Assembly (NCBI RefSeq): GCF_003334385.1
Contig: NZ_QOWN01000003.1
Reading direction: 5' to 3' (one strand)
From: Escherichia coli
GTDB lineage: Bacteria > Pseudomonadota > Gammaproteobacteria > Enterobacterales > Enterobacteriaceae
Length of the DNA stretch: 64,000 bases
The notes beneath the pieces are model-generated. The model was not told where the DNA came from. It did not search any database and was given only the letters and a program-made list of their open reading frames with translations. Of the stretch, positions 3,533-48,005 are shown piece by piece. The stretch's first letter is position 1. The number at the start of each line of letters is the position of its first letter. A program made the translations under genes and the position numbers.

Positions 3533-4297
3533 TCAGTTCAGGGCTTTCTTCAGATGTTCCGCCAGCTCGGCAATGGCCTCCGGCGAATCGTTATCGATAA
3601 TGATGTGCTTACGTTCTGTTTGCGGCGGTACGCGAATGCCGACCAGTTCAGCAAGTGGCGCGCTCTGGCTCCAGTCAATATCACTTGCCTGCCACTGATT
3701 TACCGGTTTTTTACCCGCGCCGAGAATGGCTTTCATCGAAGGAATGCGTGGCACGTTAATATCGGAGGTGACGCAGAGCACGGCTGGAACAGAGAGTTCA
3801 ATAACTTCAACATCATCTTCAAGCGTGCGTTCAATCACCAGTGTATTGCCCTGACGCTGAATAGCACTCACTGCATTAATCACCGGAAGTTGCAGAATTT
3901 CTCCGACCAGCAAGCCAACCTGCTGGGCATAAAGGTCGCCGGAACCTTCACCAAAGATCAGTAAATCGAAGCCGATCTTTTCAATTGCTGCCGCCAGCGC
4001 TTTTGCGGTATCGAGAGGCAGTGCATGTTCAAGTTGCGCATCCTGCACCAAATACAGGCTGTGCGGCCCGCGGGATAGCACGTCTTTGCGCACTTTCGAG
4101 TTCTGCAACAATGAGCCGCCAACGGTCAGCGCGGCTATCTCATCGTCATCTGTTGCGAGCTGGCTTGCAGCTTCAATGGCATTGAGATCGAACTGGCTGA
4201 TTTTGGCGTCGGCATTGTCGAAATTCAGGGTGTATTCTGGAGTGACAACAATGTCCTGTTCTTCAGGCACCAGCTTAAAGCAGGTTATTATTTTCAT
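3533..4297 (-). CDS. ydiQ: electron transfer flavoprotein, beta-type subunit (FixA-like)
   Basis: ORF track gives 3533..4396; likely start is the internal ATG at 4295-4297 (MKIITCFKLVPEEQD...), preceded by a Shine-Dalgarno-like AGGAGA, giving about 254 aa. Confidence 0.8.
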   Translation of the reverse strand: MKIITCFKLVPEEQDIVVTPEYTLNFDNADAKISQFDLNAIEAASQLATDDDEIAALTVGGSLLQNSKVRKDVLSRGPHSLYLVQDAQLEHALPLDTAKALAAAIEKIGFDLLIFGEGSGDLYAQQVGLLVGEILQLPVINAVSAIQRQGNTLVIERTLEDDVEVIELSVPAVLCVTSDINVPRIPSMKAILGAGKKPVNQWQASDIDWSQSAPLAELVGIRVPPQTERKHIIIDNDSPEAIAELAEHLKKALN

Positions 4298-42791: not shown

Positions 42792-44003
42792 TCAGTGTGA
42801 TTCGCTATGAGCGACTTCGGCATTGCCATGATTCTGGCAGCCAACTTCTTCACAACGTTGCATCATGTAACCCAGCGCGACCAGCACTACTGTTGATAAC
42901 ATCACGCTGGTGGTGGTGAGCAATGGCGTGCTGATACTGATCAGCCAGGAAACTACCAGACTTGCGAGGAAGCACAGACCCAGTTGAAGAGTGTTCTGCA
43001 ACGCTGCGGCGCGACCAGTTGCGTGTGGGAAGGGACGCAGCGCCTGGGCGACAACAATAGGGTAGATCGCGCCATTGGCAATCGCCATCACACAGAATGG
43101 GATCAGGATTTCGACCAGCGACACATGGCTAATGAAGCCCGCAGCCCAGGTCGCAATGACGCTGACAGCAAACAGCACCAGCAACCACGGTAATAACTGC
43201 TTGCCTTGCCATTTCTGCAGCGCGGCGCGACAGCCATAACCACCAATCAGAAACGCGATAGTTTGCGGGACATAACTTAAACCAATAACTGCCGGGCTGT
43301 AGCCCATTTCACTAAGGATGAACGGTGAACCGGTCAGCCATGCAAAAAAACTGGCTGAACAGGCTGCGTATATCAGCACGTTGCCGCGATAGGTTTTAGA
43401 ACGTAGCAGGTCGGTAAAGGTCAGACCATCCTGACTATTGTTACGGGCCTTCGTCGTGGGTTTGAGCCAGAAAATAGGCAGAATCAGCACCACGGTAATG
43501 GCAAACAGGGTGGCGAAAATCGCCTGCCAGGAAAAATGGACCAGCAGCCAGCTTCCTAACAGAGGAGCCAGTGCCGGAGATAGACCCACCAGCGGCATGA
43601 TGGTCGCAAAAATACGGTTAACTTTCTGTGAAGGATAATAATCTGTCACTAATGCTTGCCAGATAACCGCCGCGGCGCAGACACCCACAGCCTGTACAAA
43701 ACGCAATACCAGCAGCGTAGCGGCGTTTTCTACCCACAGCATCCCCAGACTACCTAACGCAAAAATTGTCAGGCCGATTAATAATACCGGTTTACGACCA
43801 TAACGGTCGGAGAGCGGCCCCCACAGAAGCTGGGCTGCGGCAAAACCGGCAAGGAACAGACTAAGGCTGGCACTGACAGCAGACGCAGGCGTTTGCAGGT
43901 CGGCCTGTATGGCGGCGAAAGCAGGCAGATACATATCGGTTGCCAGAAAACCGAGTACGCTCAAACCCGCCAGCCAGACTAAAAATCTTTTCCCAGGTTG
44001 CAT
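42792..44003 (-). CDS. ydhC: MFS exporter (reported purine nucleoside exporter PunC)
   Basis: 403-aa polytopic ORF, divergent from the LysR regulator ydhB. Confidence 0.82.
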
Positions 44004-44115
44004 GTATATTCTCTAAATCTCTCAATTAAACACCGCCGCAAAGTGTAGGGAGTGAAATTAGTGTTGTGAAACGGTAATATTTGATGACTGGTTTCAAAAA
44101 TTTTGCAGGCAGACT

Positions 44116-45048
44116 ATGTGGTCAGAATATTCACTCGAAGTTGTTGATGCGGTAGCGCGTAATGGTAGTTTTAGCGCTGCGGCACAGGAGCTGCATCGCG
44201 TTCCTTCTGCGGTCAGCTATACCGTGCGTCAGCTGGAAGAGTGGCTGGCGGTGCCGCTCTTTGAACGACGGCACCGTGATGTGGAGCTGACCGCTGCTGG
44301 AGCGTGGTTTCTCAAAGAAGGGCGCTCTGTTGTCAAAAAAATGCAGATCACCCGCCAGCAATGTCAGCAGATAGCGAACGGCTGGCGCGGTCAGTTAGCT
44401 ATCGCAGTGGATAATATTGTCAGGCCAGAACGTACACGGCAGATGATCGTTGATTTTTATCGCCATTTTGATGATGTCGAACTTCTTGTCTTTCAGGAAG
44501 TGTTCAACGGTGTCTGGGATGCGCTTTCCGACGGGCGCGTGGAACTGGCGATTGGCGCAACACGCGCGATTCCGGTAGGCGGTCGTTATGCCTTCCGGGA
44601 TATGGGGATGCTAAGCTGGAGTTGCGTTGTTGCCAGTCACCACCCGCTGGCGTTGATGGATGGCCCGTTCAGCGATGATACGTTGCGCAACTGGCCGTCG
44701 TTGGTGCGCGAAGACACCTCGCGAACGCTACCTAAACGTATTACCTGGTTGCTGGATAACCAAAAAAGAGTTGTCGTGCCTGACTGGGAATCATCGGCAA
44801 CCTGTATCTCGGCAGGATTATGCATAGGGATGGTGCCAACACATTTCGCCAAACCGTGGCTTAATGAGGGGAAGTGGGTAGCATTAGAACAGGAAAACCC
44901 CTTTCCGGATTCGGCATGTTGTCTGACATGGCAGCAAAATGATATGTCGCCTGCGTTAACCTGGTTGCTTGAGTATCTCGGCGATAGTGAGACGCTGAAT
45001 AAGGAGTGGCTGCGGGAGCCGGAAGAGACTCCCGCAACGGGTGATTAA
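44116..45048 (+). CDS. ydhB: LysR-family transcriptional regulator (PunR)
   Basis: 310-aa ORF with an N-terminal LysR HTH; divergent from ydhC. Confidence 0.82.
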
Positions 45049-46070
45049 CGACGATAGTCGCGGAACGGGCCGTCAGCCACGGAGCGGCGTTCAATCAAGC
45101 GCGGATGCACTTCAATAGACTGCGGTTCTTCACGTTTGTTGACGATACGATCCAACAGCATGTTGAACGCTGTTTCACCCAGCGAATCTTTTGGCTGATG
45201 GATCGTGGTCAGCGCCGGCGTAAAATAGCGCGCGTTGCGCACGTTATCATAACCGATCAGCGAAACATCCTGCGGGACGCGCAGGCCCATTTCATCAGCA
45301 GCACAAAGTGCGCCCATTGCCATGATATCGCCACCACAGAAGACGGCAGTAGGGCGATGCGGCTGCGACAGGATTTGCTGCATGGCGCGATAACCGGATT
45401 CAGGTTCAAAGTCACCCTGCACAATCCAGCTTTCCGGCACCTTGATCATCGCTTCTTCCATCGCCTTCATAAAACCGGCAAGGCGGCCTGCGCCGGTGTT
45501 ACGTTCCAGCGGGCCGGGGATGACGCCGATTTCGCGGTGACCGCGTTCAATCAGATAACGCCCGGCCATGTAGCCGCCTTCGAACGCGTTATCAATGACC
45601 GCATCGGTGAAGTCAGCTTTTGCTTCACCCCAGTCCATGACCACCATTGGGATATGGCGATACTCTTCCAGCATCGCCAGCAACGGCTCTGGGTACTCAG
45701 AACACATCACCAGCAGACCATCGACGCGTTTTTGCGCCATCATCGACAGATAAGCCCGCTGTTTCTCAAGATTGTTCCACGCATTGCCCAGAATCAGGGT
45801 GTAACCTTTCTGGAAGCAATTTTTTTCAACTGCTTCAATGATCTCGGCAAAATAGGCCGCTTCGCTGCTGGTCGCCAGCAAACCGATAGACTTGGTGTGG
45901 TTAACCTTCAGGCTACGCGCCACCGCGCTAGGGGAGTAGTGTAATTCTTTAATCGCTGCCCACACGGCGTTGCGCGTTTCTTCAGCGACGAAACGTGTTT
46001 TGTTGATCACGTGTGACACAGTTGTAGTGGAAACGTTTGCTCGTTTCGCTACATCTTTTATTGTTGCCAT
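45045..46070 (-). CDS. purR: purine repressor (LacI family)
   Basis: 341-aa ORF starting [36 protein letters not shown], recognised as PurR. Confidence 0.95.
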
Positions 46071-46114
46071 TCCATTTCACTCCAGACCCTAACTTCAGCT
46101 CCTGCAAAATCGCA

Positions 46115-46130
46115 AGGTAAACGTTTGCCT
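46115..46130. promoter_or_regulatory. PUR-box-like operator in the purR leader
   Basis: AGGTAAACGTTTGCCT matches the PurR operator consensus ACGCAAACGTTTGCGT at 13 of 16 positions, about 45-60 bp upstream of the purR start codon. Confidence 0.5.
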
Positions 46131-46368
46131 TTACACACCTTACGCACAACAAAAGTGTTGCGGTACGCCGGAAAAACGACACGGAGCGTCAGGAAGGGGT
46201 CAATGGCCAGTACGCAAATAGTGTAAGCGTGGAATTTTGGCCGATCTTGACGAAAAGGGGAAGTGGTAAAAACACTTATCATTATAAATGACGGGAGATT
46301 TTTTCATCACAGTGTGTAAAAATGCGTAATATCACTTTTTGTGTGGTAATAAAAAAGGAGAAAACTTG

Positions 46369-46458
46369 ATGAGCACCGACCTTAAATTTTCACTGGTAAC
46401 AACGATTATCGTCCTCGGTTTGATCGTAGCCGTGGGTTTGACTGCCGCGCTGCACTGA
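46369..46458 (+). CDS. ynhF: 29-aa single-TM small membrane protein
   Basis: Not in the ORF track. ATG at 46369 preceded by Shine-Dalgarno AAGGAG (46355-46360); encodes MSTDLKFSLVTTIIVLGLIVAVGLTAALH; a stem-loop follows the stop. Matches the small protein YnhF as recalled. Confidence 0.6.
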   Translation: MSTDLKFSLVTTIIVLGLIVAVGLTAALH

Positions 46459-46623
46459 TTTCCTCTCGAGGGAGCGCGTTCTCCCTCGCATCTCCTTCCT
46501 GTTTGTTAGCAAAATGGCAAAAGTGTTTTCTCTTTTTGTTATTTTCATTTTTTTGTGATTGCTGTCATGCTTTCGCCACTTTAATGAATATCGCGTAATG
46601 ACGCGAAGAGGTGGAGATAAGGC

Positions 46624-47856: not shown

Positions 47857-48005
47857 TGCCGGATGCGGTGTTAACGACTCATCCGCGTTGACATGAAAAG
47901 ACGCGTTAGGCGTCGTATCATGCAGCGCTTGTCGGATGCGGCGAGTGCCTTATCCGACCTACATCGATGATCCGCGTAGGCCTGATAAGCGTAGCGCTTC
48001 AGGCA
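47857..48005. repeat. cluster of REP (repetitive extragenic palindrome) elements
   Basis: Several copies of REP-like motifs (GCCGGATGCGG..., GTCGGATGCGGCG...CTTATCCGACCTAC, GTAGGCCTGATAAGCGTAGCGC) between ydhP and sodB. Confidence 0.75.

Follow-up and report, generated by a model that had tools for sequence, protein, structure and literature searches.

Overlapping stop codons of the convergent genes purR and punR in Escherichia coli and a conserved purR hairpin within the punR reading frame

The convergent genes punR (ydhB) and purR of Escherichia coli end on the same four nucleotides, and this arrangement raises the question of where their two transcripts can end and whether the shared nucleotides are of any consequence in themselves. 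The window analysed here is a stretch of 64,000 nucleotides of E. coli DNA (contig NZ_QOWN01000003.1 of assembly GCF_003334385.1); it is the reverse complement of MG1655, and an MG1655 coordinate equals 1783914 minus the window position. The features of the junction are listed in Table 1.

Stop codons of punR and purR in a shared TTAA

In the window, positions 45040-45049 read GGTGATTAAC, and the plus strand near 45045 reads ...ACG GGT GAT TAA CGA CGA TAG..., of which GGT GAT TAA is the end of punR. The bases 45046 and 45047 are common to both stop codons inside the TTAA, and the 'A' at 45048 pairs with the third position of the last arginine codon of purR (CGU, Arg341). The RefSeq annotation of MG1655 places purR at 1737844..1738869 (+) and punR at 1738866..1739798 (-), an identical 4-nt overlap. 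An earlier note on this DNA had claimed that the two stops overlap in TTAA, and the window sequence, the open reading frames and the MG1655 annotation all bear this out; the stop codons are correctly assigned since the reading frames fix them. PurR was 341 aa long in all 77 loci measured among the best 80 of 257 loci from other species.

The surrounding 2.4-kb region (window 43900-46300), annotated with purR, punR and punC, had a match of at least 95% identity in all but 2 of the 5,426 complete E. coli genomes (5,424), and the 50 nt of the junction were identical in 4,979 E. coli genomes and 95-99% identical in another 414. An IS30 element lies inside the 2.4-kb region in HB101. Strain B27 matches only positions 1366-2401 of the query (the purR part, from about 45265), with punR and the junction missing or rearranged. 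A second in-frame stop for punR, TAG at 45055-45057, stands three codons past the TAA and was present in 26 of 26 overlapping loci (best 80 of 257), and read-through of the punR stop carried by the TTAA would add only 3 residues.

Overlaps of this kind have been described before. Lillo and Krakauer (2007; PMC2174442) counted 58 convergent overlaps in E. coli and reported that the tetramers TTAA, CTAA, CTAG and TTAG produce an excess of 4-nt convergent overlaps, with 672 convergent overlaps shorter than 5 nt (1,890 - 1,218) in 58 genomes. The same study pointed out that the terminators of such genes must sit in the coding sequence of the partner, and Rho-independent terminators were predicted for one gene in 19 of the 58 E. 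coli convergent pairs. In E. coli Term-seq data, Adams et al. (2021, eLife; PMC7815308) recorded 99 3' ends that were 'primary' for one gene and at the same time 'antisense' to a second. The stops of purR and punR share such a tetramer, and both genes are real, as shown by their RefSeq names, orthologues of 85-99% identity in 78 species (among the best 80 of 257 loci), Pfam domains and the published function of PunR. The pair is one of the 58 E. coli overlaps and differs from the described class in nothing of kind, and like the 19 pairs with predicted terminators it has a terminator-like structure within the partner gene. Overall, the purR-punR overlap is real, ordinary, already annotated and a member of a described class, and its pattern goes beyond chance in no interesting sense.

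PunR matches the Pfam domains HTH_1 (residues 7-62) and LysR_substrate (residues 88-290). It is a LysR-type activator of punC, and PunC is a transporter for the uptake of purines and purine nucleosides (Rodionova et al., 2021; PMC8376909); the description of punR in the earlier note as a regulator of purine-nucleoside export has to be corrected in this respect, because its target takes these compounds up and does not export them. The same study noted that the gene context of punR and purR is conserved among enterobacteria.

On the other side of purR, a full-length match to the Rfam 'sRNA' family STnc550 (396 bits) covers 46071-46461 on the plus strand, starting at the base that adjoins the purR start codon (46070, minus strand) and containing the 29-aa cydH/ynhF open reading frame at 46369-46458; the family seems to represent the cydH mRNA, including a leader of some 300 nt, and not a non-coding RNA. 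The PurR-box core GCAAACGTTTNC occurs twice without mismatch, at 46117-46128 in the purR 5' UTR and at 46029-46040 in purR codons 11-14; these are the known purR autoregulatory operators. A match to naRNA4, a REP-like family of nucleoid-associated RNA, was seen on both strands at 47890-47959 with 47.7 bits, below the gathering threshold of 59.5. The Term-seq data of PMC7815308 contain a very strong 3' end just past STnc550 (MG1655 1737422, window 46492) and, downstream of the PurR boxes, two further 3' ends, one at window 46081, 11 nt ahead of the ATG, and one within purR at 45962.

Table 1. Features of the purR-punR junction in window coordinates
Feature	Position	Strand	Description and basis
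punR (ydhB) CDS	44116..45048	+	310 aa; TAA at 45046-45048; ORF list, MG1655 b1659
purR CDS	45045..46070	-	341 aa; UAA is the complement of 45045-45047; ORF list, MG1655 b1658
TTAA common to both stop codons	45045..45048	.	Window sequence and ORF list
purR mRNA hairpin	45009..45038	-	GUUGCGGGAGUC-UCUUCC-GGCUCCCGCAGC; 12 bp, about -22 kcal/mol; folding
purR mRNA steady-state 3' end	45006..45007	-	MG1655 1738908/1738907; Term-seq of Adams et al. 2021
purR 3' UTR	45006..45044	-	38-39 nt, entirely within the punR ORF; ORF list and Term-seq
PunR C-terminal extension ETPATGD (codons 304-310)	45025..45045	+	ORF and locus comparison

The purR 3' end and its hairpin inside punR

The 3' end of the purR mRNA has been mapped. 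Adams et al. (2021; PMC7815308, supplementary file 1) detected it in two of three growth conditions, at 1738907 (+) and 1738908 (+), respectively, with a score of about 1,500, purR being weakly expressed; the end is classed as 'primary' for purR and 'antisense' to ydhB. The 61-nt strings given for each end in that file span -50 to +10 around the end, which we verified on the neighbouring sodB terminator. The mapped end is 38-39 nt beyond the purR stop, and the purR mRNA is antisense to punR codons 298-310 and the punR stop over at least 42-43 nt. The proposal that the 3' ends of the two mRNAs are complementary thus holds, on the strength of the published end.

Folding of the purR-sense strand placed a hairpin 6 nt past the purR stop, and the mapped 3' end is 2-3 nt beyond its stem. 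The hairpin lies wholly inside punR codons 298-308, with its 3' arm formed by codons 298-302 and its 5' arm by codons 304-308. It had been argued in the earlier note that the overlap leaves no room for separate terminators; this part did not stand, since a conserved hairpin at the purR 3' end sits within the punR ORF.

The conservation of the hairpin was evaluated in relatives found with PunR as the query, taking the best 80 of 257 loci from other Enterobacteriaceae species, 78 of which hold both gene ends. The hairpin set comprised 78 sequences (the window and 77 of these loci), with one locus that carries an insertion, L035, set aside. Among these best-matching loci, the hairpin was found at the same place in 78 of 78 sequences, with energies of -15.7 to -25.2 kcal/mol, and mononucleotide shuffles of the hairpin region gave a mean of -9.1 kcal/mol. 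The stem sequences themselves vary by species (for example GGGUGCCGG/CCGGCACCC, GGACACCC/GGGUGUCC and GCGAACGC/GCGUUCGC). When the 5' half from one species was combined with the 3' half from another, the mean energy was -15.5 kcal/mol compared to -20.6 kcal/mol for the native combinations, and the native mean was reached in 0 of 2,000 permutations. In a covariance-model alignment (A3, model R1), double-sided changes were seen at 9 of 11 pairs (53 cells), 88.8% of the cells were paired compared to 35-51% when the partner was slid by 1-3 columns, and the observed level of covariation was reached in 0 of 500 shuffles; this alignment is fitted to its model, contains 7 opposite-strand rows and has cells that are phylogenetically non-independent, and the 3' arm is also under coding constraint from PunR (...EWLREP). 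A plain MAFFT alignment (A1) gave no RNAalifold consensus structure, because differences in loop length displace the 5' arm, and it was superseded by the covariance-model alignment and the alignment-free chimera experiment.

The strand on which the structure is selected could be read from the wobble pairs. The purR-sense rows contained 34 G·U cells and 6 A·C cells, an A·C cell being the wobble pair expected if the punR-sense RNA were the selected strand. In addition, the hairpin was more stable on the purR-sense strand in 55 of the 78 sequences (from the best 80 of 257 loci), with means of -19.7 and -18.1 kcal/mol for the purR-sense and punR-sense strands, respectively, and values of -22.1 versus -15.9 kcal/mol in E. 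coli. The 34:6 bias towards G·U and the lower energy of the purR-sense strand point to the purR RNA as the selected strand. These comparisons of sequences show that the hairpin has been kept as an RNA structure on the purR-sense strand across the Enterobacteriaceae.

A palindrome that binds a protein at the DNA level was considered and rejected, since complementarity rather than sequence is conserved and the G·U pairs are biased to one strand. Within the 64-kb window the model R1 matched this site alone, giving no indication of a repeated element, and Rfam held no family at the purR-punR junction. In Enterobacter sp. kpr-6 (L035, positions 3913-3957), the spacer between punR and purR is 45 nt long, and its insertion is a second hairpin, GGCCUGCGG-UUUUACG-CUGCAGGCC, beside the conserved one.

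Formation of the purR and punR transcript ends

Like an intrinsic terminator, purR has a stable, G+C-rich hairpin close behind its stop codon, with a sharp 3' end nearby. One explanation is that this hairpin is an ordinary intrinsic (Rho-independent) terminator which releases the purR transcript on the spot, and two further observations agree with it: the list of Rho-dependent regions in PMC7815308 holds none at this site, and Rho-independent terminators were predicted within the partner for 19 of 58 E. coli convergent overlaps (PMC2174442). However, a U tract of 7-8 nt that holds the 3' end, as an intrinsic terminator has, is missing in purR. The E. coli tail after the stem is CACUCCUUAU, the 10 nt after the stem contained 1-5 U (mean 2.6) in 78 loci, and a U tract was found in 0 of 78 species (both among the best 80 of 257 loci). 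Moreover, the purR transcript ends close to the base of the stem, 2-3 nt past it, whereas the sodB end in the same table lies about 6 nt into a U run, and a scan for consensus terminators did not call the hairpin site at 45009-45038. Release by an intrinsic terminator is thus an unlikely account of the purR end.

The end of purR bears a closer resemblance to the transcripts described by Dar and Sorek (2018; PMC6061677), in which Rho-dependent transcripts end precisely after stable stem-loops without a U tract. Such ends often lie in the next gene, with an excess of C over G downstream, and they arise by trimming with PNPase and RNase II. The steady-state end of purR likewise lies directly past a stable stem without a U tract and in the coding sequence of the neighbour. 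The C/G ratio is 1.5-2.3 over the 200 nt downstream of 45006 on the purR-sense strand, but the composition of the punR coding strand may suffice to account for this. The transcripts of Dar and Sorek were found to depend on Rho and on PNPase/RNase II, whereas purR is known here from its end position and sequence features. Within MG1655 1738500-1739099, PMC7815308 lists no bicyclomycin-sensitive (Rho) region, and its authors call that list an underestimate.

From this resemblance, a route to the purR end can be outlined in which the polymerase would run on into antisense punR, where Rho, acting on untranslated RNA rich in C, would probably stop it, and exonucleases would then trim the purR RNA back to the protective hairpin. 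Judging from the analysis above, read-through, downstream termination (probably by Rho) and trimming to the hairpin is the most likely route, with odds slightly better than even. Non-canonical termination that depends on the hairpin, at a stem without a U tract, is possible but rates as tentative, and collision-assisted bidirectional termination, as proposed by Ju et al. (2019) and Wang et al. (2022), seems improbable. Three points put the collision route last: a single mapped end, the strand bias of the structure and the weak expression of both genes.

For punR, the three Term-seq conditions of PMC7815308 showed no minus-strand 3' end within MG1655 1737952-1741259, perhaps because punR is too weakly expressed to be seen, and SMRT-Cappable-seq data made no mention of purR or punR. 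The single terminator-like site near the stop on the punR-sense strand, a stem at 45168-45184 with a T-rich tail, was discarded as a punR terminator, since just 3 of 79 sequences (from the best 80 of 257 loci) retain all 5 of its pairs. Under the proposed mechanism, punR transcripts would have to run antisense into purR. The wild-type total RNA-seq counts of Huang et al. (2020; PMC7373196, Table S1c) were 10.5 RPM antisense versus 31.4 RPM sense for purR and 2.0 RPM antisense versus 28.3 RPM sense for ydhB; these are counts per gene without statistics, and other antisense promoters may contribute. They fit a picture in which punR transcripts enter purR while purR transcripts stop soon inside punR.

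The same data bear on the possibility that the hairpin is a bidirectional terminator serving both purR and punR, perhaps helped by head-on collisions of polymerases, a mechanism suggested for convergent gene pairs in E. coli. The palindrome folds on both strands in E. coli (-22.1 and -15.9 kcal/mol), and a hairpin without U tracts stands between, or at the ends of, a convergent pair. As summarised by Wang et al. (2022; bioRxiv 10.1101/2022.10.23.513370), Ju et al. (2019) described elements of this sort that are neither like intrinsic terminators nor Rho-dependent, and purR-punR resembles them in being a convergent pair with a non-intrinsic stem-loop at its boundary. It differs from the terminators described there in having one mapped end, a strand-biased structure and low expression, and collision is reported to terminate highly expressed pairs more efficiently, whereas purR and punR are weakly expressed. 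In addition, the three Term-seq conditions yielded no punR 3' end, the wobble pairs favour the purR strand by 34 to 6, and the antisense reads over purR suggest that punR transcription reads through. Finally, in E. coli the hairpin in the punR mRNA is fully translated, so ribosomes would unfold it. Termination of both genes at this one hairpin is hence quite improbable.

Origin and meaning of the shared TTAA

The origin of the overlap was approached by comparing the end of PunR across species. Among the 78 loci with both gene ends (best 80 of 257), 26 have the 4-nt overlap and a PunR of 310 aa, 47 combine a 303-aa PunR with 14-22 nt of spacer (45 nt in one), and in 5 PunR has 307-309 aa and the spacer 1-5 nt; an overlap longer than 4 nt was found in none of them. 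The 3' arm of the hairpin encodes the conserved PunR end ...EWLREP, and in the 303-aa loci the spacer before the purR stop contains the 5' arm. Of the 47 loci with a 303-aa PunR, 46 carry the punR stop codon in the loop of the hairpin, 34 of them with all three bases and the other 12 with one or two (again from the best 80 of 257 loci); an example on the punR strand reads CAGGAGCCGG-AAUAA-CCGGCUCCUG. In E. coli, codon 304 (GAG, 45025-45027) occupies the position of this loop stop.

On a neighbour-joining tree of 1,920 nt of punR and purR, the overlap state changed at least 7 times among the best 80 of 257 loci, and the midpoint root was reconstructed as non-overlapping. Residue 304 varies by lineage (E, Q, T, S, G, I or A), and in the Citrobacter gillenii group a stop is found at position 304 again, which implies at least one reversal. 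When the spacer is 17, 14 or 5 nt long and so brings the TTAA into frame, a PunR that loses its stop gains no more than 7 codons; at most other lengths of the spacer it would continue antisense into purR for 18-330 codons.

These patterns are consistent with an origin in which the Escherichia/Citrobacter/Salmonella type and, in separate events, several other genera would have lost the loop stop. Translation would then have continued across the 5' arm for a further 7 codons until it met the next stop in frame, formed by the complement of the purR UAA and the base that pairs with the final position of the Arg341 codon (TTA+A). The outcome would be a PunR of 310 aa with a 4-nt overlap, given an in-frame spacer of 17 nt, and this requirement for an in-frame spacer accounts for the finding that no locus has an overlap longer than 4 nt. 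We infer loss of the stop, rather than its gain, as the direction of change from the midpoint-rooted gene tree of the Enterobacteriaceae. From this we conclude that the shared TTAA is a tolerated by-product of a punR end nested in the purR 3' structure and does nothing by itself. The combined explanation, comprising the nested hairpin, the loss of a stop in its loop and the overlap as a by-product, is in our judgement the best one, with a probability of roughly 0.78.

The 7-residue extension of PunR could alternatively have been selected for protein function, with the overlap merely reflecting this. The 310-aa form occurs in the window and in 26 of the 78 loci (best 80 of 257), is nearly fixed in E. 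coli, and its tails are often acidic or rich in Pro and Ala. The tails, however, diverge by genus (ETPATGD, EAPAQQA, TPAPGRD, ASVRKEA and ASAPQRH) and stand beyond the LysR_substrate match, which ends at residue 290. The extension is also absent in most genera (best 80 of 257 loci) and was lost again within Citrobacter, and its nucleotides are accounted for by the arm of the hairpin. A selected function of the extension is highly improbable, and loss of the loop stop, with the overlap as a by-product, is preferred.

Another explanation is that the overlap forces complementary 3' ends, which are used for mutual down-regulation of the genes for the purine repressor and the uptake activator. The transcripts are complementary over at least 42-43 nt, the antisense signal over purR is about one third of the sense signal in one wild-type RNA-seq set (PMC7373196), p19-captured dsRNA reads exist for both genes (PMC7373196, Table S1b/c), and purR and punR act in one physiological circuit and have conserved adjacency. 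Against this, the same hairpin is found in species whose stop codons do not overlap, where its loop contains the punR stop, so that the overlap of the transcripts is independent of the TTAA, which adds nothing to it. The dsRNA and antisense values are given per gene and are unremarkable next to those of neighbouring genes, purR sense counts changed from 31 to 57 RPM in rnc mutants (values without statistics), and the weak expression of both genes would make encounters between polymerases rare. A search of the literature found no report of a purR-punR cross-effect or of the overlap. We give little credence to regulation that uses the overlap in this way.

A broader form of this argument would have the punR 3' end nested in the purR hairpin as a selected device, not a result of compaction, for reciprocal tuning of the two genes across the Enterobacteriaceae. 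The purR 3' UTR would then pair with the end of the punR mRNA, or the polymerases would meet at the hairpin, and the position of the punR stop (in the loop or in the TTAA) would set the extent to which ribosomes unfold the hairpin on punR. We give such a device even less credence, and continue to regard the shared TTAA as a by-product.

The findings have little import for biology at large, since the overlap was annotated, its class was described and the purR 3' end had been published. The conserved purR hairpin within punR and the recurrent origin of the overlap by stop loss are the added findings, which are tidy and unsurprising; what they add to the known class is a probable route of origin, by which a stop within a hairpin loop disappears, and the recurrence of gains and losses of the overlap between genera. 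They indicate that overlapping stops need not exclude a terminator, because the structure at the 3' end can sit in the reading frame of the neighbour. The locus also serves as a worked example of how the complement of the stop codon next door can serve as a fail-safe after the original stop, within a hairpin loop, has been lost, an event that appears to have been repeated among genera. In practical terms, deleting or tagging the 3' end of punR takes away the structure at which the purR mRNA ends, and vice versa, so that polar effects on this global regulator of purine metabolism are possible.
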